Source: a virus
Taxonomy: Duplodnaviria > Caudoviricetes
Virus record (IMG/VR): IMGVR_UViG_3300009692_000017
Span: 1-64,000 of that record
DNA length: 64,000 nucleotides
Direction: 5' to 3' (one strand)
The translations under genes and the position numbers were made by a program. Below are positions 7,282 to 31,355 of the stretch, piece by piece (the first letter of the stretch is position 1; every line of letters begins with the position of its first letter). The notes under the pieces are model-generated. The model made no database searches, was not told the origin of the DNA, and saw only the letters and a program-made list of their open reading frames with translations.

Positions 7282-8246
7282 ATTTTTATCTCTTTTTTCA
7301 TCATATCATATAAATGTTTTGGCATAGATTCCTCATCTAATTTCACTAATTTCATATTTCTAATCAATCTTTCATTCATCATATCATCCATAAAGTCATC
7401 TTTTAATCTTTTATATAATTTAATATGTTCTATGATTCTATTTTTGAATTCGATAGAATTGAAATCGATTGGTTCAGGGTAAGTTTCTTTATATAGAGTA
7501 TAAATTTTTATTATTCCGTTTTTTCCAATGCCTCTATCACCTTTCATATAAACTGATTTAATATTATCCTTGTTATGTCCCATTATTTTCATAAATAATT
7601 CAAGTTCTGAGTTTAAATGAGTAACTTTTTTAGATTTGATAAAATTATCTATAAATCTTAAAAAATCTATTTCGTTATTATCTTCGAAAATATCATCGAC
7701 TATATTTTCTTTTATATGTTTAGTTAGTAAGTTATAATACTCTGGCACATATACTCTATCATCCAACATCTTATAGTTATACATGATGTTCATATATCTT
7801 TTATCAATATCGTAGTTCACTAGTTGATAAAGATCGCTATCATTTGACATGATAAAAACAGAATGTCCTTTATCGTTTAGTTTTTTTGTGATATATGAAA
7901 TAACATCATCCCCTTCTAAATTATCAATTTGATATTGAACACAATTTTTCTTTGAAGATATGAATTCTTCTTTAAATCTAGCGAATTCACGATATACAAA
8001 ATCCCAATTTATATTATCGTTTCTTTTACGTGTTCCTTTATATCCCTCAAACAATTCTTTTTTCCAGTTTTTATAACTATCTGAAACAAAATATATCTTA
8101 TCAAAAGGATATAAATTTGTGATATTATTGTAATCTCTTTCTATTACATTATATAATTCAGAATACAGAATTTTATTTTTATGTAGTATATGTACGGATT
8201 TTTGGAGTAAATAATTTGCATCAAAAATCAGGTCAAAATTTATCAT
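7278..8246 (-). CDS. T4 RNase H-like / FEN-type 5'-3' exonuclease
   Basis: IFDANYL, YFVSDS..W...F..YKGTRK, LEGDDVI, IMSNDSDLYQL, G...DNI....GIG. Confidence 0.85.
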   Translation of the reverse strand: MINFDLIFDANYLLQKSVHILHKNKILYSELYNVIERDYNNITNLYPFDKIYFVSDSYKNWKKELFEGYKGTRKRNDNINWDFVYREFARFKEEFISSKKNCVQYQIDNLEGDDVISYITKKLNDKGHSVFIMSNDSDLYQLVNYDIDKRYMNIMYNYKMLDDRVYVPEYYNLLTKHIKENIVDDIFEDNNEIDFLRFIDNFIKSKKVTHLNSELELFMKIMGHNKDNIKSVYMKGDRGIGKNGIIKIYTLYKETYPEPIDFNSIEFKNRIIEHIKLYKRLKDDFMDDMMNERLIRNMKLVKLDEESMPKHLYDMMKKEIKI

Positions 8247-8348
8247 TCATTAGCATTATTTTTTATTTATAAACATTTTAGCATAAAAAGTTTATTTCGT
8301 TTTTATATATAAAACAATAAGTTTATTCTTAAAAAATAATTTAAAAAA

Positions 8349-9293
8349 ATGTTTTATAATATGAGTTTCTATGCTTGGTTAATGAACGGGTGGTATTATG
8401 TTCGTTTTTATTTCAAATCATATTTAACAAATTATTTCAATAAAAAACAAAATAACCCAATTGGAAAAAAAGATTATAATTTAATCTTTTCTGACGAATT
8501 TGATCAACAAATCGATTGGGAAAAATGGAAATCTTGTGAAAAATGGGGATGTATAAGAGACATGGTTATTTTTAAACAATCCCAGGTTACACAGAATAGT
8601 AGTGACGCTATTTTGACATCAGATTTAAATGATGTACAGGATGAACCAAAAGCCAAAACGGGTGGTTTATATAGTTGGAATTCATTCAATACTACATATG
8701 GTTATTTTGAAACAAGAGAAAAATTGGCAATAGGGGGTCTTAGATACTGGCCAGCGTTTTGGTTATGTTCATCCGATAGTTGGCCTCCGGAAATTGATAT
8801 TTTTGAATTGATGGGGGATGATAGTTCTTATTTTACAATGACATTACATTGGAGAAATACATGGACAAATCGAGTCGAAATCGAAAAAATTTATATACAA
8901 ATATATAAAAAATATGGTTATATTTCAAATGATTATGACAAAACCATTAAATTCTTACAACAACCCGAATGGACTCAAGAAAAACAAAATTTTATAGATG
9001 AATTAGAATCTTTAACACCATTAGAACAAAAAGGAAGACGATTGAAATTTCCAAAAAAAGATTTTTTATCTTTGGATTATCACATTTATGCCTGCGAATG
9101 GGAATATAATAAAGTTGTTTGGTATATTGATAATTTACCGGTTTATATTCTAGATAAACACATCCCAGATAAAAATATGCTAGCTTTAATAAATAATAAC
9201 TACGTATATGATAATGAATATGGTCCAGTGCCATCACAACTTCCTATGAGCATTTATTGTGATTATTTTAGAGTCTATGAACCAATCCAATGA
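8349..9293 (+). CDS. Glycoside hydrolase family 16 protein
   Basis: LIFSDEFD, YGYFE.R, WPAFWL, catalytic EIDIFE, YHIYACEW, VWYID, DYFRVY. Confidence 0.88.
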   Translation: MFYNMSFYAWLMNGWYYVRFYFKSYLTNYFNKKQNNPIGKKDYNLIFSDEFDQQIDWEKWKSCEKWGCIRDMVIFKQSQVTQNSSDAILTSDLNDVQDEPKAKTGGLYSWNSFNTTYGYFETREKLAIGGLRYWPAFWLCSSDSWPPEIDIFELMGDDSSYFTMTLHWRNTWTNRVEIEKIYIQIYKKYGYISNDYDKTIKFLQQPEWTQEKQNFIDELESLTPLEQKGRRLKFPKKDFLSLDYHIYACEWEYNKVVWYIDNLPVYILDKHIPDKNMLALINNNYVYDNEYGPVPSQLPMSIYCDYFRVYEPIQ

Positions 9294-22893: not shown

Positions 22894-24348
22894 ATGCTAC
22901 TAACAAAAGAAGTAAAAATAAAAATCAAACAACCGAATATGAAATACTATTTGGATTTAGGTTATAATGTGAGATATGGTGATGTTATTACTATAAGTCC
23001 GGATAAATTACCGAAGTTTTCCAGAGAAATTGTTGAAGTTAAATGTGATATTTGTGGCAAGATTAAAAAACTAAAATATTTTGTATATTATAAAAATTTT
23101 TTAAAATATAATTTTTATTGTTGTTCACAAAAATGTTGTCAAACAAAAGTAACTATGACAAATAATAAAAAATATGGATGTGATAGACCGATACAAAATA
23201 AAGAAATAAGAAAAAAATTAGAAGATACTTGTTTAACTAGATATGGTTTCGTTATACCATCTATGAACAATGATATAATAGAAAAAAATAAAAATAAATA
23301 TATTTTAAGATTATTGAAAAAATATGATTATTTGAAAATTGATCATATACATGATCATATTGCTAATTTTAAATGTGATCAAAATAAAGAACATAATTTT
23401 GATATCAATTTTGCTTTACTTGGCACTAGAATAAAATATAAAACTATAATTTGTACAATATGTAATCCTCTTAATTCTTCATTCATAAGTGGAAGAGAAT
23501 TACAATTGCAAGATTTTTTAAAAAAAAATTATGATAAAAAAATAATATTAAATTCTAAAAATATTATAAAACCAAATGAAATTGATATTTATTTGCCGGA
23601 TTTAAAACTAGCTTTTGAATTTGATGGAGTTTATTGGCATAACGAATTATATAAAGATAAAAATTATCATTTATATAAAACTAACGCGTGTGAAAAATGC
23701 GGAATTAAATTAATCCACGTTTTTGAGGATGATTGGTTATATAAACAAGATATAGTTAAATCTAGAATTTTAAATCTTTTAGGAAAATCAAATAAAATAT
23801 ACGCTAGAAAATGCGAAATAAAAGAAATTGATAATAACGAACTCGTGAAATTATTTTTAAATTCTAATCATATTCAAGGTTTCGTCGGCTCAAAAATTAA
23901 AATTGGTTTGTTTTATAATAAAGAATTAGTTTCTATAATGACATTTGGTAATCTTAGAAAACCAATGAATCAAAAATCATCTGAAGGATCCTACGAAATG
24001 TTGAGATTTTGTAATAAATTAAACACTAATGTTATCGGTGGAGCTAGTCGTTTATTTAAATATTTTATCGATACTTATAAACCGAATGAAGTTATTAGTT
24101 ACGCCGATAGAAGTTGGTCTACGGGTCATTTATACGAAATATTAGGTTTTAAAATAGAACACAAAACTCAACCAAATTATTATTATGTTATAAATGACGT
24201 TAGAAAACATAGATTTGGTTTTAGAAAAGACAAATTAATAAAAGAAGGAGCAGATCCAAATAAAACTGAACACGAAATAATGTTAGAAAAAAATATATAT
24301 AGAATATATGATTCTGGACATCTAAAATATAAAATAGTTTATGCTTAA
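22894..24348 (+). CDS. Free-standing homing-endonuclease-like protein, copy 2 (overlaps the terminase start)
   Basis: VKCDICG, KKYG, EIDIYLPDLKLAFEFDGVYWH, YARKC, NHIQG, EMLRFCNKLN, ISYADRSWS. Confidence 0.75.
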   Translation: MLLTKEVKIKIKQPNMKYYLDLGYNVRYGDVITISPDKLPKFSREIVEVKCDICGKIKKLKYFVYYKNFLKYNFYCCSQKCCQTKVTMTNNKKYGCDRPIQNKEIRKKLEDTCLTRYGFVIPSMNNDIIEKNKNKYILRLLKKYDYLKIDHIHDHIANFKCDQNKEHNFDINFALLGTRIKYKTIICTICNPLNSSFISGRELQLQDFLKKNYDKKIILNSKNIIKPNEIDIYLPDLKLAFEFDGVYWHNELYKDKNYHLYKTNACEKCGIKLIHVFEDDWLYKQDIVKSRILNLLGKSNKIYARKCEIKEIDNNELVKLFLNSNHIQGFVGSKIKIGLFYNKELVSIMTFGNLRKPMNQKSSEGSYEMLRFCNKLNTNVIGGASRLFKYFIDTYKPNEVISYADRSWSTGHLYEILGFKIEHKTQPNYYYVINDVRKHRFGFRKDKLIKEGADPNKTEHEIMLEKNIYRIYDSGHLKYKIVYA

Positions 24349-24781
24349 AAATTTTTTACGAGAAATAATATACTTCCTGATTGAACTTATTGAAAAAATT
24401 GAATATAAAAATAATAATTTTGACGAAAAAGATCCTCTTAAAAAAATAATGAATTTTTTTCCAATAGAAGATATGTTAGTCGAAACCGACTACGGCTTTG
24501 TCCCTATTGAAGAAATTAATTTAACACAACCATACAGGATACACGAATTAATACTAGAAAACGGAATAAAACTAAATTGTGCCGATGTTCATGCTGTTTT
24601 CTGTGAAGGACATATTATTAAGTATGTTGACGATTTAACATTAGATGATATAGTTTTAACTAAAACAGGACCTTCTAAAGTAAAATCAATTAAAAAAACG
24701 AAATCTAAAGTATCCATGTTCGATTTATCAATAAAATCAAATGAACATAGTTATTATACCAACGATATATTAAGCCTCAAT
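24341..24781 (+). mobile_element. Split intein C-fragment (Hint domain lacking block A)
   Basis: VETDYGF, block B-like LNCADVH, block F VSMFDLSI, block G YYTNDILSLN followed by +1 Thr; no N-terminal Cys. Confidence 0.8.
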
Positions 24782-26611
24782 ACGATCTCGGCCGCCATAG
24801 TAATATTGCAATTCGTCTTGTTCAATACGGATAAGAGTATTATGATAGTTGCCAATAAATCAGAAACAGTGAAAGAAATAATTAGAAAAATAAAGGATAT
24901 ATATAAGTTATTGCCGTTTTTCTTAAAAGTTGGAGTCACTAATTGGAATGAAAAAACAATAGCCTTTGAAAATAATAGTAGGGTTCAAACTCAAGCCAGA
25001 TCACCAGAACCGGCTATTGGTTTTGCGATAGATTTATTATATCTAGATGAGTTTGCTAAAGTCCCATCTAATATTATACGTCGATATTATGGTGCTGTAG
25101 TACCAACAGTATCGTCCATTGAGAATTCAAAGATTATAATTACTTCAACACCGGAAGGTTATAATTTATTTTGGGAATTATTAACCGATGCTGAAAGGCC
25201 AAAAGAAGATCCAAGATGGAATAAGTATCAACCCATGAGAATTTATTGGCATCAAGTTAAAGGTAGAAGAGATACAAAAATATTATTCTTAGAAAATAAA
25301 CTCAAACAATTTAATTTAACAAAAGATGAAATAATAGATCAACTTAAAAACTTAGGATATGTTATGTATTCGAAAAGATTGGATAATGAAAATTGGGATT
25401 TGATAAAATTTTTTGAAGATGATGAAAAAACACAAAGAGAAAATAGTAGTATTGACAATATAAGGCAAATTAGAATAAATGATGTTGTACCATTACCTGA
25501 AATTTGTAGAATAACAAATTGGCAAGAAGAACAAACAGGTCTTATTGGAGGAGAATCCATGTTTAATCAAGAATATGAAATTCAATTCATAACTGACGAT
25601 AAATTATTATTTGATAGTGTTATGTTTGAAAATTTCATGAATGATCAATATGAATTTGAAACTCCATATTTAGATATATTCGATAAAAAAATGAAGTTAC
25701 CATATACTAGTTTGAAATTTGTTAAAGATAAACCAGAATTGTTTGATTTACCTAAAGCCAAAGATTATTATATTACTATTGGAATAGATTTAGCAGAAGG
25801 TCTTGGATTAGATTATAGTGTATTTAACATATTTAGATTAATGATGAAAGATGAAAAAAACATACAACGCAGAAAAGAAATTATAAATAATAAATATGAT
25901 TTATTTAAATTAGAACAAATAGGAATATTTAGAAATAATGTATATTCAATGGACGAAATGGCTCACATTTTATATCTATTGGTATTTGAAGTATTCGATC
26001 CAGAGAAAGTTAAAATTGTTTTAGAAATGAATAAAAATCTAGGTAATGATTTAATAAATAATATGCGTCACGTTTTTAATGACAATAATAATTTTATGGA
26101 TGCCATATTCGCTAGATATATTCAAAAAGAAAGTGATAAAAAAACTAAAATTGGATTATTAATAGGACATAATAAAAAATTATTATTAAAGGATTTTCAA
26201 GATGCGATCAAAAAAGACAATATGATTTTACATAATGAAAGTACTATAATAGAACTTAAATCATTCTCAAAAAAAGAAACCCCTGGTGGTGATTTAACAT
26301 TTAGATCTGAAACAGGCAATGACGATTGTGTAATGTCACTTGTCAATCTGGCTAGTATATTTGATAATGTTTGTTATAAAGATATGGTCGATTCTTATTC
26401 TGAGAGTTTAAGTGATAGAGAAAAATCTTTAATGATACAATTTTTAAATATGAAAGATGATGGTACGATTATCGATTATGGCACTATGACCGGTGCTCAC
26501 AAAAGATTTTACCCTAAAATAAAACCAGATATAAAACCAATATCTTTCACAAGTCCATTCAATGAAAAATCAGGTTCCTTGAAAAATCCTTTCGAGAGAA
26601 AATATTTTTAA
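24341..26611 (+). CDS. Large terminase subunit (gp17-like), C-terminal extein preceded by a split-intein C-fragment
   Basis: After YYTNDILSLN the ORF reads TISAA...IVANK...LPFFLK...ENNS, Walker B LYLDEFA, IITSTPEG, FNQEY, nuclease IGIDLAEGLGLDYS and GNDDCVMS. No N-terminal RQxGK. Confidence 0.9.
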   Translation: MLKNFLREIIYFLIELIEKIEYKNNNFDEKDPLKKIMNFFPIEDMLVETDYGFVPIEEINLTQPYRIHELILENGIKLNCADVHAVFCEGHIIKYVDDLTLDDIVLTKTGPSKVKSIKKTKSKVSMFDLSIKSNEHSYYTNDILSLNTISAAIVILQFVLFNTDKSIMIVANKSETVKEIIRKIKDIYKLLPFFLKVGVTNWNEKTIAFENNSRVQTQARSPEPAIGFAIDLLYLDEFAKVPSNIIRRYYGAVVPTVSSIENSKIIITSTPEGYNLFWELLTDAERPKEDPRWNKYQPMRIYWHQVKGRRDTKILFLENKLKQFNLTKDEIIDQLKNLGYVMYSKRLDNENWDLIKFFEDDEKTQRENSSIDNIRQIRINDVVPLPEICRITNWQEEQTGLIGGESMFNQEYEIQFITDDKLLFDSVMFENFMNDQYEFETPYLDIFDKKMKLPYTSLKFVKDKPELFDLPKAKDYYITIGIDLAEGLGLDYSVFNIFRLMMKDEKNIQRRKEIINNKYDLFKLEQIGIFRNNVYSMDEMAHILYLLVFEVFDPEKVKIVLEMNKNLGNDLINNMRHVFNDNNNFMDAIFARYIQKESDKKTKIGLLIGHNKKLLLKDFQDAIKKDNMILHNESTIIELKSFSKKETPGGDLTFRSETGNDDCVMSLVNLASIFDNVCYKDMVDSYSESLSDREKSLMIQFLNMKDDGTIIDYGTMTGAHKRFYPKIKPDIKPISFTSPFNEKSGSLKNPFERKYF

Positions 26612-26760
26612 ATATTTTTTATTTTTTTTATTTCTCCTTTACCGTTACAGATCTCGCATTTTCCATCTTTAGTATATCCACTCCCATCACACACAGGGCA
26701 TAAAAATATCTTTATTTCTTCTTTTTTAACTTTATCGTTTGACTTATCGGGAGATTCCAT
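26608..26760 (-). CDS. Small DnaJ-type zinc-finger protein (50 aa), missing from the ORF track
   Basis: Manual ORF MESPDKSNDKVKKEEIKIFLCPVCDGSGYTKDGKCEICNGKGEIKKIKNI with two CxxCxGxG motifs. Confidence 0.7.
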   Translation of the reverse strand: MESPDKSNDKVKKEEIKIFLCPVCDGSGYTKDGKCEICNGKGEIKKIKNI

Positions 26761-26887
26761 TTTTTAATTATTTTTTAAACAAAATGAATTTTTGTTTATA
26801 TATTAAATATAAAATTCATTTTTAATAACGATAGTGTTCATTGATAAATTATTTTGAGAAAAATTTTTTTATATCGAATAAATGACG

Positions 26888-26895
26888 TATCTTTG
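26888..26895 (+). promoter_or_regulatory. Bacteroidota-type -7 promoter element driving the non-coding locus
   Basis: cgTATCTTTGta matches TAnnTTTG. Confidence 0.65.
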
Positions 26896-26900
26896 TATAG

Positions 26901-27587
26901 TCAAAATGATAAAAGAGTTCTTTTTCAAAATTGAGATAAATAAATCTATTAGTCCATAGAATGACTAATACTGAAAAGCGAGATAATTTCAACCTAATAG
27001 TAGGCATATAAATAGATTTATTAGTTCTAAAAACGCTCTTTGTTACTATGATGGCGCTTCAAGCTTAATACAACGAATGTTGTCCCTGAAAGTAGAGTTC
27101 TTTGAAAGATTGAAAAAATAATTTGTGGCAGAAAAAGAGATAGCCATTCTCTAATGCACTGTAATCCATTACTGGGAAGTGTGGCGCAGTTTTTACAAGT
27201 TTCTAGTCATAAACCTGAACGTCTGCCAAGGTTGGCCAACCTTGATCGTCGTAAGAACCAGACAAATCGTTATATATACGACAGATGGCTGTATCTGGTT
27301 GGAGGAAAAAATCCTCCCAATCACTCCCAATGGGAGTAAAATCCGATAGTTGATCGCTTCGGATGATTGTGGGTGAAGAATGATCGAAATTCGAGGATTG
27401 TGAGTAATCTGAAATCTCACCAAATTATTTTTTACTTTCATATTAGATTGGTTTAACTCAGTGATGAGTTAGATGATTTAAACCGAAGTAGGTCTTCAGA
27501 AAGCCGAAAAGGGAGTGATCTTCAAAAGCAAAAGCTACCAATTCTATGAGCGTAGTCCCAAATTTATTAATCTGCTGCAGATGGGAC
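26901..27587 (+). ncRNA. Candidate large structured non-coding RNA(s), family unassigned
   Basis: GC well above the surroundings and no credible ORF. Perfect long stems 26939-26950/27011-27022 and 27113-27125/27421-27433, many internal hairpins, two boxA-like motifs, flanked by a promoter and a terminator. Confidence 0.7.
27094..27107 (+). promoter_or_regulatory. boxA-like antitermination element (another copy at 26914-26928)
   Basis: AGAGTTCTTTGAAA and AGAGTTCTTTTTCAA; resembles rrn leader boxA (GUUCUUUGAAA-type). Confidence 0.55.
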
Positions 27588-27624
27588 ATAAAAAAACCGG
27601 ATTGAAAAATCCGGTTTTTTTATG
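27587..27624. terminator. Bidirectional intrinsic terminator
   Basis: cataaaaaaaccggat-tgaaaa-atccggtttttttatg perfect inverted repeat with T/A tails, between converging units. Confidence 0.85.
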
Positions 27625-27641
27625 CTCATTTTTATCATAGA

Positions 27642-28499
27642 TTATTGTATAAAATCTTTATATTTTTTTAAACTTTCTTTTATTGGGTATTTAATTGGAG
27701 TTTTTAATATTACACTATTCTTTTTAAATCTATTAATTTCATTATCTGTTACCAAATAAGTATCTAATTGTAGAGGGAAAGTACTTATTCTATCTATTAT
27801 TATTCTATATAATTCATCATCAGTTTTTCTTAATAATTCGTCAAAAAACATTTGAGCGTCATTAGCATAATCAATGTTCTTTGGATCATCATCATAAAAA
27901 CTAACTTTTTTATACCAATCCTGTTTTATAGATACAAATTTGCCATCTTTTATTTTTAAACCAACCAAATGTTCAAGTAAAACGAAAACTTTTCTTTTAT
28001 AATCGGTACCCATTCTCATTCCTTCACCTACAAAAAATATTTTACTTATTTCTATGCCTATTTTTTTCAACTCCAAACGTAATTTGTTGATGACATTAAC
28101 ATGATTTTTTTGATTTGATCTAGCTGTTAAAAGACCTATATCAGTGAATTTATTATATCTTAAATGTTCTATGTTATGAGAAAGTACATCTATTTCTCTT
28201 TTATCTAATATTTCTTTTCTAACCAAAGGAATAAAAGATATTCCAAATCTTTCTATATTTTCACTTCCTGATTTTTTCTTAATAATATCAAATAATTCTT
28301 CACTAATATAATATGTTTGACCGTTATATTCTAGTGGATGATCATCTTTTTTAAATTTACCATTAGATATTAATGAAAATTCTAATTGATTTAATATAAT
28401 AAGAGGTTTATATGGTTTTTCTTTATCTATTATCCATATATCATCATTCTTAATATTCCAAAGAACTCCATCCAAATCAAACATTGCAATATCCCTCAT
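27642..28499 (-). CDS. HAD-superfamily phosphatase-like protein
   Basis: Motif I FDLDGVLW, motif II LLTAR, motif IV FYDDDPKN. Confidence 0.7.
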   Translation of the reverse strand: MRDIAMFDLDGVLWNIKNDDIWIIDKEKPYKPLIILNQLEFSLISNGKFKKDDHPLEYNGQTYYISEELFDIIKKKSGSENIERFGISFIPLVRKEILDKREIDVLSHNIEHLRYNKFTDIGLLTARSNQKNHVNVINKLRLELKKIGIEISKIFFVGEGMRMGTDYKRKVFVLLEHLVGLKIKDGKFVSIKQDWYKKVSFYDDDPKNIDYANDAQMFFDELLRKTDDELYRIIIDRISTFPLQLDTYLVTDNEINRFKKNSVILKTPIKYPIKESLKKYKDFIQ

Positions 28500-29996: not shown

Positions 29997-31355
29997 GTGA
30001 TTTTAAGTGAAGAAATAAAAGTAAGATGTAATTCTAAAAATTTTAAACATTTTAATGAATTAGGATATGATGTGAAAATTAACGAATATTTTCAAGTAAA
30101 AATAAAAGATTTATCCAAAAATTCTCATACTAAAATATTTGTAAAATGTGATATTTGTGGTGATATAAAAAATATCACTTATTTTTCGTATTGTAGAAAC
30201 ATTAATAATGGGAATTTATACACTTGTTATAAATGCAGTAAAATTAAATCAAAAAAGACTTCTTTAGATAAATATGGTGTAGAGTATCCAATACAATTAG
30301 AAAATATAAAACAAAAGAGAGAAAAAAACAATATTGAAAAATATGGTGTTGACTATCCGTCTAAATTGAAAGAAAATATAGATAAATGTAAAAAAACTAA
30401 GTTAGAAAAATACGGTAATGAAAATTACGTTAATATAGAAAAAGCTAAAGAAACTAAATTAGAAAAATACGGTAATGAAAATTATGTCAATATTGAAAAA
30501 ATAAAAAAAACTAATTTAGAAAAATATGGATGTGAAAACGTTTTTCAAAACAACGAAATTAAAAATAAAAAAATAAAAACATTTATTAAGAATTACGGTG
30601 TTGATAACTATAGCAAATCAGAAATTTATAAAAATAAAAAAAATAAATTTATTTTAGATAAATATGAAAATATAAATATTCTTGAATCCAATAATGATAT
30701 CATTACTTTCATATGTGATTGTGAAAAAGATCACTTATACGACATAAATATTAATGTTTTGAGAAATAGAATAATATACAAAACAATCTTATGTACTGTT
30801 TGTAATCCTGTCAATTCATACACCAATAGCGGACACGAAATACAATTACAAAATTTTATAAAAGAAAATTATAAAGATGATATAATTTTAAATAACAGAG
30901 ATTTAATTGGTAAAGAATTAGATATATATTTACCAAAAATAAAAATAGCTTTTGAATTTAATGGTTTATATTGGCACTGTGAACTGAATAAAGAAAAAAA
31001 TTATCATCTAAATAAAACAGAAACATGTGAAAATTTGGGAATAAAATTAATTCATATCTACGAAGATGAATGGGTGAATGATGAAGATAAAATAAAAACA
31101 AAAATATTAAATATATTAAAAAATAATAAACCATCCAGTATAGAAGAATTAGAATTTATCGATATTTACAAAATAAAAAAATTAAAAAATGAAATTTTAT
31201 GTGAGGTGGATAGATCATGGTCAAACGGATCAGAATTAGAAGAATTGGATTTTAAATTAATAGAAAAAATAAAACCAGAATATCGTTTTATAGATAAAGA
31301 AAATAAAATTAAAATTTGGAATAGCGGTTATCTGAAATATATTAAATATATTTAA
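29997..31355 (+). CDS. Free-standing homing-endonuclease-like protein, copy 3 (shortened C-terminal domain)
   Basis: VKCDICG, LEKYGNENYVNIEK x2, ELDIYLPKIKIAFEFNGLYWH. Lacks the YARKC...RFCNK segment but keeps DRSWS. Confidence 0.7.
   Translation: MILSEEIKVRCNSKNFKHFNELGYDVKINEYFQVKIKDLSKNSHTKIFVKCDICGDIKNITYFSYCRNINNGNLYTCYKCSKIKSKKTSLDKYGVEYPIQLENIKQKREKNNIEKYGVDYPSKLKENIDKCKKTKLEKYGNENYVNIEKAKETKLEKYGNENYVNIEKIKKTNLEKYGCENVFQNNEIKNKKIKTFIKNYGVDNYSKSEIYKNKKNKFILDKYENINILESNNDIITFICDCEKDHLYDININVLRNRIIYKTILCTVCNPVNSYTNSGHEIQLQNFIKENYKDDIILNNRDLIGKELDIYLPKIKIAFEFNGLYWHCELNKEKNYHLNKTETCENLGIKLIHIYEDEWVNDEDKIKTKILNILKNNKPSSIEELEFIDIYKIKKLKNEILCEVDRSWSNGSELEELDFKLIEKIKPEYRFIDKENKIKIWNSGYLKYIKYI

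Follow-up and report, generated by a model that had tools for sequence, protein, structure and literature searches.

The stretch of viral DNA analysed here, the first 64,000 nucleotides (nt) of IMG/VR record IMGVR_UViG_3300009692_000017 (the window, to whose positions all coordinates refer unless a locus is named), carries at 26888-27624 a genuine cluster of structured RNA genes, and its central member, a core RNA of ~320 nt, is a real, conserved and pseudoknotted phage RNA that is new to Rfam. On balance, we favour the reading that this locus forms an operon in which the phage encodes stable untranslated RNAs and whose layout is that of the ribosomal RNA (rRNA) operon of the host; the core RNA would be its processed, trans-acting main product and a larger relative of the manA motif. 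An earlier description of the locus, made from the letters alone and referred to below as the original prediction, had pointed to such a layout, and all of the strings that it named were found at the positions given for them.

Conservation and structure of the core RNA

Relatives of the core RNA were gathered by scans with exact words from its most conserved blocks, followed by an nhmmer profile. The collection comprises 47 sources, equal to 35 distinct sequences, from viral contigs, metagenome contigs and one contig of a Bacteroidales metagenome-assembled genome (MAG). All 24 metagenome loci were confirmed by nhmmer, as were all nine new viral loci from a scan with a motif of the 3' block. 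A scan of the genome collection gave 33 stretches, where ~28 were estimated to arise by chance, and a single one of them, L034 on the Bacteroidales MAG contig, proved real by nhmmer; L013 was discarded as a chance match inside coding sequence. The phages carrying the core RNA come from gut, rumen and wastewater samples, and the RNA is single-copy in each of G000, LR756501 and a complete phage of 553 kb.

Structure was assessed on 29 full-length aligned members, and the closing stem P1 on a separate alignment of nine sequences. RNAalifold predicted 56 pairs, 39 of them changed on both sides, and after addition of the pseudoknot 60 pairs in 12 helices were counted. Over these pairs 97.4% of the cells were paired, against 79.1 in shuffles, 43 of the 60 pairs were compensatory (28.9 in shuffles, and 8-14 when partners were slid by one to three columns), and the covariation score was 0.561 against 0.210; none of 500 shuffles reached any observed pairing or covariation value, so the covariation among homologs that the original prediction had proposed as a check is plainly present. 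P1, at the place where a perfect stem of 13 base pairs (bp) had been described, covaries as well, since at two of its pairs both sides changed in four of the nine sequences. The guess that the loop TAGCCAT meets ATGGCTG in a kissing loop or pseudoknot was borne out: all four pairs between the P3 loop and the internal loop of P8 covary (GCCA/TGGC, GAAG/CTTC, GATG/CATC, GACA/TGTC, AGCA/TGCT). Covariation equally upholds the 18-nt palindrome and the pairings AACCAGA/TCTGGTT and GGAGGA/TCCTCC. The suggested helix TGGCAGA/TCTGCCA is not kept in relatives and gives way to P2, while ACTCCCA/TGGGAGT holds an intermediate position, as both of its sides change among the operon-type relatives by eye but the pairing falls outside the counted structure, in a variable hairpin.

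Two further features of the fold are nearly fixed. The core of the P7 loop, GGCC, is self-complementary, and its sole variants among the 29 sequences, GGTC and GGCT, both keep self-pairing via G-U; in addition, the helices are joined by long invariant single-stranded junctions (GACGTAAGAA, CTGTATC and TGAATAATG). Three pairs conserve a wobble, two as U-G (in 28 and in all 29 of the 29 sequences) and one as G-U (in 24), and these kept pairs, together with the common strand of all neighbouring transfer RNA (tRNA) genes, place the core RNA on the plus strand. Folding energy by itself can neither tell the strands apart nor decide anything, because both fold better than shuffles (z -3.55 for the plus and -6.10 for the minus strand).

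At gathering score, Rfam returned no family in the window and only tRNAs in ten loci. As the original prediction had supposed for tRNA, transfer-messenger RNA (tmRNA) and RNase P RNA, no model of these, of signal recognition particle (SRP) RNA or of group I or group II introns matched the window (Rfam at threshold and in permissive scans, with ARAGORN for tRNA and tmRNA), and the same tools do detect tRNAs and group I introns in related loci. STnc370, L20 leader and AgrB, listed at 27520-27664, were rejected as matches to the terminator hairpin. The Rfam search thus leaves the RNA without a family at threshold, but its novelty is tempered by consistent sub-threshold matches to manA (RF01745), discussed below. 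Literature searches, with supplements outside their coverage, found no paper on the core RNA and none on a manA function.

An operon with the boxA of its host phylum

The word GTTCTTTGAAA occurs exactly once in the window, directly before P1, and near-matches to it are not enriched window-wide (six with one mismatch or fewer against 4.9 expected). A different picture emerges from the ten operon-type loci, where GTTCTTTG is present in sense orientation 24 times within 15,670 nt of operon sequence and 10 times in 222,674 nt elsewhere, a 34-fold enrichment. It lies 12-16 nt before the core in nine of the ten, the tenth, L034, reading GTATCTTTG, and in related phage operons every RNA module has such a boxA in front of it. 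The leader of a Bacteroidales rRNA operon has ATAGTTCTTTGAAAATATTG ~100 nt before the 16S gene, followed directly by a strand of the 16S processing stem, and its spacer has AAAGTTCTTTGACATATTG just before 23S; the rRNA spacer of a Flavobacterium carries the one-base variant GTTCATTGACATATTG before 23S. These matches indicate that the phage motif is the rRNA boxA of the host phylum, standing in the same place relative to a flanking stem. boxA is described as being bound by NusB-uS10, with the resulting complex blocking Rho and aiding rRNA folding (PMC10931766).

The order of promoter, boxA, flanking stem and RNA that the original prediction likened to an rRNA operon holds, and its boxA reading is backed by the Bacteroidales rRNA operon. 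Its claim of two boxA-like copies stands in part: the copy at 27094 matches the Bacteroidales rRNA boxA, but that at 26914 is degenerate and not conserved, being absent from the 26 listed near-matches to GTTCTTTGAAA and from the corresponding place in L003 (the LR756501 locus) and L004. Comparison of the sites at 27097 and 26888 of the window with L034 also suggests that boxA and internal promoters may interconvert.

Operon-type relatives make up 10 of the 35 distinct sequences; they have no tRNA nearby, and the locus is modular, with up to ~eight different modules. The window carries modules A, C, core and F, and further modules, labelled B, D, H and G, are found in differing sets of relatives. 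No module other than the core has an Rfam match at E 1 or below. Module A is the ~60-nt unit inside stem 1, as originally described. The scan for it gave 70 stretches, mostly chance, among which nhmmer kept 13 sources (window included) at E 1e-18 or below and a weak one, L140. The position of stem 1 is taken in each homolog by a flanking stem of different sequence, and the unit itself is mostly sequence-conserved, with three of 20 predicted pairs changed on both sides in 11 sequences. In module F, the proposed GUGA-tetraloop hairpin (27454-27471), GNRA-capped and within the stem GGTTTAA/TTTAAACC, is supported by L111, which aligns pairwise with the first ~115 nt of the module and keeps the GNRA loop with compensatory changes in the hairpin. 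The module also has a conserved word, CTTCAGAAAG, at 27494-27503, and its CCTTCAGAAAG is kept in L003, L004, L005 and L107; the pairing GTCCCA/TGGGAC, named for the same block, is present in the window but was seen nowhere else. An alignment of seven rows, of which the L111 row was off-target, yielded no predicted consensus structure for module F.

Some observations on the relatives may be added. Modules B, D, G and H each follow a boxA (L004 1630-2000 on the minus strand, L003 3200-3540 and 3990-4140, L005 and L047). In module H the string GAGGAAAGTGAG recalls the P4 region of RNase P, but no RNase P model matches and the assignment was dropped. In L111 (~8230-9200, minus strand), boxA and the start of P1 are kept and a short hairpin stands instead of the core.

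Association with tRNA genes and presence in sequencing libraries

In 25 of the 35 distinct sequences the core RNA lies inside a same-strand tRNA array, and every tRNA there is on the strand of the core; the window itself has no tRNA. Where the stretch available includes a downstream tRNA (21 sequences), the nearest is Met (CAT) in 11, Ser in five, Asn in two and Lys, Val or Gln in one each. In many array loci the flanking tRNAs are 16-91 nt from the core, the closest at 16-36 nt. These phages have promoters of the TTGACA/TATAAT type, and the difference in promoter type from the operon-type phages implies that the core RNA crosses host groups.

The arrays have features of their own. Group I introns (RF00028, 52.9-69.2 bits with a gathering score of 50) occur among the tRNA genes beside the core in several phage contigs (Table 1). 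A tRNA with a four-base anticodon (ttcg) was reported by ARAGORN, and one phage tRNA array contains a match resembling tRNA-Sec, whose 39.7 bits fall short of the gathering score of 47 (loci given jointly for the two: L008 448-529 and L069 899-977). Downstream of the core in L009-L012, a repeated word, ATAGTGA..(5-6 nt)..TAG.TTTACATAG, stands before tRNA genes and in array spacers (e.g., L010 5900-6100).

All sampled words of the locus were found in 14 DNA runs from nine studies of sludge, wastewater, bioreactor, groundwater, sediment and other sources. Six metatranscriptome runs from five studies, with libraries of 127-463 million letters, contained 0.88-0.91 of the 77 sampled locus words, which suggests that the RNA of the locus is expressed, allowing for possible carry-over of DNA into RNA libraries.

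Relation to manA

Earlier work describes manA as a riboswitch candidate that precedes cyanophage and marine genes within their 5' untranslated regions (UTRs) (Weinberg et al. 2010, PMC2864571; PMC9964418). In permissive Rfam scans its model, RF01745, fell on the core in 14 of 18 sources, in all of them below the gathering score of 55.2 bits: at 19.0 bits (E 0.022) in the window, at up to 24.5 bits in two of three loci and at best at 32.1 bits (E 1.2e-4, 44.5-kb search) in 11 of 14 loci. The true manA of phage P-SSM2 scores 181.6 bits, and manA was absent from two of the three cyanophage genomes searched. The model aligns always to the same elements of the core, as followed in detail in L061. 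In the reverse direction, a model that included P2/P3 (R2) ranked the manA site of P-SSM2 first, weakly, at 10.1 bits (E ~0.01), with a hit of 9.0 bits elsewhere in the locus, and a model without P2/P3 (R1) failed, placing the site fourth of 22 hits at 4.8 bits (E 0.72).

Both RNAs are phage-borne and have in common a short helix that surrounds the internal loop CTGAATAA/TAAG and is capped by a hairpin (P2/P3 of the core), a GACGTAA junction, a following helix that contains a hairpin (P8) and a terminal hairpin with a loop of the TAA...AAT type (P9). They differ in that the core is ~130 nt longer, has P1, P6, P10 and P11 and is closed differently. The outer closing helix of manA, GGGAG/CTCCC, was paired by cmscan in L051 and L047 and left out in L061, and the ends in the window are joined by P1 and P6. 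Searching the alignment of operon-type sequences for a manA-like GGGAG/CTCCC helix, or for base pairs between CACCC and the bulge that follows P5, showed that these words are used by local hairpins instead, and both pairings were rejected. The pseudoknot of the core covaries, whereas the candidate words of manA, GGCA and TGCC, are invariant in 99 sequences and so allow no covariation test. The habitats (gut, rumen and wastewater for the core, marine for manA) also differ, as does the genomic position, which for the core is a tRNA array or an rRNA-like operon and not a 5' UTR.

The distribution of manA itself bears on this last point. Among 114 marine manA loci, a tRNA is present in 18, lies within 1 kb in 14 and within 12 nt in 12 (Table 1), all of those checked being on the same strand. 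The adjoining tRNAs, at 0-12 nt, are Asn, Gly or Asp on the 3' side and Thr on the 5' side. Such adjacency is more in keeping with a stand-alone RNA that undergoes processing than with a leader, and is hard to reconcile with a purely cis-regulatory manA. Taken together, a distant kinship between the core RNA and manA, not membership of the same family, appears likely, and the most suitable label for the core RNA is that of a new and larger manA-related variant.

Genomic setting

The source record has 92,276 bases and is ~13% complete according to CheckV, from which it follows that the phage is huge. The RNA locus comes directly after the gene for the large terminase subunit (TerL, 24341-26611; Pfam Terminase_6N, E 4.1e-9), with a minus-strand open reading frame (ORF) for a CxxC zinc ribbon of 50 amino acids (aa) at 26608-26760 between the two, kept in LR756501 (L003 2702-2872). 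The next gene, 27642-28499, is convergent on the minus strand. A syntenic locus follows TerL in the uncultured 735-kb phage LR756501, whose record is termed a megaphage (PMC9723777), and has a longer non-coding stretch of ~1130 nt. As a side observation, DUF7487 proteins are encoded on both sides of the terminase-RNA region (22894-24348 and 29997-31355).

The island of ~720 nt with raised GC and no credible ORF, from which the original prediction set out, is evident: GC content rises from 0.17-0.30 in the flanks to 0.35-0.43 over 27000-27499, and the longest ORF within the locus has 82 aa on the minus strand (27193-27441) and 61 aa on the plus strand. These ORFs are not kept in L003, where there is only a minus-strand ORF of 52 aa. 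Both ends of the island are likewise as described. The promoter string TATCTTTG, which we take to be a -7 element of the Bacteroidota type, is present at its start, and the block GTATCTTTGTAT with an upstream T-rich stretch is kept in L003, L004, L005, L047 and L107. At its end stands the one terminator-like site found (shuffles gave a mean of 0.6), which has 17 pairs; judged by its palindromic sequence, this terminator is shared with the convergent gene.

Table 1. Features of the RNA locus and of related loci (window positions unless a locus is named)
Feature	Position	Strand	Basis or remark
Promoter element TATCTTTG	26888-26895	+	sequence; conserved in relatives
Degenerate boxA-like string	26914-26934	+	window-specific
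Module A, ~60-nt unit (26951-27010) in flanking stem	26939-27022	+	nhmmer, alignment
Stem 1	26939-26950/27011-27022	+	perfect 12 bp
Module C (GGCGCTT..AAGCT.AATACA....TGTCCCT)	27049-27090	+	by eye common to L004, L065, L107
boxA (GTTCTTTGAAA 27097-27107, then GATTG), directly before P1	27094-27112	+	exact match
Core RNA, ~320 nt	27113-27433	+	alignment of 29 sequences, covariation
P1 (stem 2 of the original prediction)	27113-27125/27421-27433	+	perfect 13 bp
P2	27128-27130/27155-27157	+	GCA with TGC, 3 bp, closes P3; favoured by covariation
P3	27136-27141/27147-27152	+	hairpin
Pseudoknot	27143-27146/27286-27289	+	GCCA (P3 loop) with TGGC (P8 internal loop)
P5, GNRA hairpin	~27170-27181	+	loop GAAA in most sequences, GGGA in window
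P6	27207-27217/27370-27383	+	
P7, palindromic hairpin	27225-27247	+	loop near-invariant
P8	27256-27262/27294-27300	+	
P9	27301-27306/27312-27317	+	
Variable hairpin (contains ACTCCCA/TGGGAGT)	27323-27337	+	
P10	27341-27363	+	
P11	27400-27420	+	
Module F (third block)	27436-27586	+	hairpin, conserved word, window-specific hairpin
Intrinsic terminator, palindromic	27587-27624	both directions	17 pairs, T tail; same stretch matches itself on opposite strand
Group I introns (RF00028)	L061 747-938, 1686-1859, 2547-2729; L066 427-601; L060 664-846		
manA with same-strand tRNA at 0-12 nt	L179, L227, L272, L262, L156, L247, L224, L168, L192, L158, L255, L203		marine viral contigs

Proposed mechanism and alternatives

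We suggest the following sequence of events for such an rRNA-like phage operon. Transcription would start at the Bacteroidota-type promoter at 26888, and the host-type boxA at 27097 in the nascent RNA would most likely recruit NusB/NusE and the rrn antitermination complex, allowing RNA polymerase to traverse a long and highly structured untranslated stretch protected from termination by Rho, while the RNA receives help in folding. The modules could then be freed by cuts at the flanking stems, stem 1 and P1, presumably by RNase III, and in the tRNA-array phages release would fall to the tRNA processing enzymes. The main product would be a single-copy RNA of ~320 nt that folds into twelve helices, with a pseudoknot between a hairpin loop and an internal loop, a GNRA tetraloop and a palindromic hairpin loop that hardly varies. 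This product probably acts in trans as a folded RNA and not as a gene leader, and perhaps as a self-associating particle. Action in trans is supported by the terminator after the locus together with the convergent next gene, by the position in tRNA arrays and by the single copy. Because tRNA genes accompany the core in 25 of the 35 distinct sequences, the core RNA most likely serves the take-over of translation or of tRNA metabolism by the phage. A more far-reaching version, which we put forward tentatively and consider possible without giving it preference, would hold that huge Bacteroidota phages possess an rRNA-like operon of their own, which takes over the Nus/boxA antitermination of the host to mass-produce up to ~eight structured RNAs (modules A-H, none in Rfam), with the core RNA and manA forming one superfamily of trans-acting, tRNA-linked phage RNAs that act on the translation apparatus or form an RNA particle.

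Several observations weigh against the reading we favour and call for caution. GTTCTTTG is one base away from the promoter element TATCTTTG, and together with the departing word before the core in L034 this means that some boxA sites could instead be internal or weak promoters. P1 has only 13 bp and is AU-rich, short for a classic RNase III site. The evidence for RNA consists of word matches, subject to the carry-over mentioned above, and the tie of the core RNA to translation comes solely from its neighbouring genes. Since the family was gathered with exact conserved words, part of their invariance follows from the search itself, although the scan with 3' words did recover members whose 5' words differ. 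Finally, the operon of L111, a close relative of LR756501 on a contig of 152 kb, lacks the core, and no copy of the core was found elsewhere in this fragment, so that the core is dispensable there.

Other explanations of the core RNA have been considered, one of which concerns function only and would be compatible with the operon model: the core could be an RNA-only self-assembling particle, a dimer or larger, like OLE, ROOL and GOLLD, with the P7 loop as an intermolecular kissing contact. ROOL and GOLLD are described as phage RNAs near tRNA islands that build cages via kissing loops (bioRxiv 10.1101/2024.12.08.627333), the core has a conserved GNRA loop, and by our own enumeration the variants of the self-complementary GGCC are the two out of twelve single changes that keep its self-pairing via G-U. 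However, there are only two variant types, both C-to-T transitions, the core is far below ROOL and GOLLD in size, and neither of these has an Rfam match at E 10 or below in 26700-27750 or at E 1 or below in 17 loci; we regard the particle as unlikely, with an appreciable chance left to it. An improbable possibility, in our view, is that an RNA made in bulk by the rRNA mode of transcription acts as a decoy or sponge against a host defence or factor, for instance by binding a tRNA-directed nuclease or by tying up a protein of the ribosome or one that binds RNA. The tRNA genes of phages may in part serve to replace depleted host tRNAs, and the company of tRNA genes, the rRNA-type, high-output layout and the absence of the core from one relative, as is often the case for accessory counter-defence genes, would suit such a role. 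Yet no defence or partner gene was linked to the core in this analysis, and blocks of 20 nt that are invariant across phages of different promoter types would need a target conserved across host phyla.

The long invariant junctions, the pseudoknotted core and the position inside tRNA arrays could also be expected of a ribozyme, for example one that processes RNA or tRNA, or of a diverged RNase P, tmRNA, SRP RNA or group I intron. This is very improbable given that no Rfam family reached threshold in the window or in ten loci, that the permissive scans returned no match of the core to any of these families and that ARAGORN found no tmRNA; the helix order of the core presumably does not fit RNase P, and two conserved strings that resemble RNase P were rejected as a sign of it, as their strand order is wrong and there is no Rfam match. 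The proposal of a cis-acting, riboswitch-like leader of a downstream gene, the class to which manA was assigned as a candidate in 5' UTRs (PMC2864571), draws on the sub-threshold manA matches and was already disfavoured. We see only a slight chance for it, since in the window another RNA module and a terminator follow the core and the next gene is on the opposite strand, since the core is bracketed by a closing stem with boxA in front and in most distinct sequences lies between tRNA genes, and since even true manA adjoins same-strand tRNAs in a part of its loci. That there is no functional RNA at all, the locus being a chance-structured spacer or hiding a small protein gene, might be read from the folding of both strands and the 82-aa minus-strand ORF, but is scarcely credible: it is refuted by plus-strand covariation with conserved G-U pairs unless the alignment is an artefact, the conservation extends across phages of different promoter types and habitats, and the ORFs are not kept in L003.

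Significance and comparison with known systems

The core joins ROOL, GOLLD and manA, a small group of phage RNAs of unknown function, as a well-supported and large structured member, and the operon holds several further unnamed RNA modules. Its host-type boxA and flanking stems provide a defined transcription logic that is testable with Nus factors and RNase III, and the presence of the locus words in metatranscriptomes means that RNA ends and abundance are measurable on public data. Either genomic setting, the rRNA-like operon or the tRNA array, speaks for an RNA that is processed and acts in trans; the link to manA, if true, would upset the current view of that motif as cis-regulatory.

Small stable RNAs of unknown function are also held in the tRNA gene cluster of phage T4, where they are co-transcribed with the phage tRNAs; their likeness to the core RNA is one of setting, as small RNAs among phage tRNAs. 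ROOL and GOLLD are abundant RNAs that, like the core, are described as phage-encoded, often beside tRNA islands and with complex pseudoknotted folds (bioRxiv 10.1101/2024.12.08.627333), but they have no sequence or structure match to it in Rfam scans and measure roughly 580 and over 800 nt against its ~320. The boxA of the lambda nut site offers a precedent for the use of host Nus factors by a phage (PMC10931766), a comparison made at the level of description, and differs in serving mRNA operons together with protein N. A further counterpart of the locus is the leader and spacer of the bacterial rRNA operon: the phage products have no rRNA match, their stems are of 12-13 bp and the phage operon is modular, but the order of the parts is the same, and the boxA words are those of the Bacteroidales rRNA operon.

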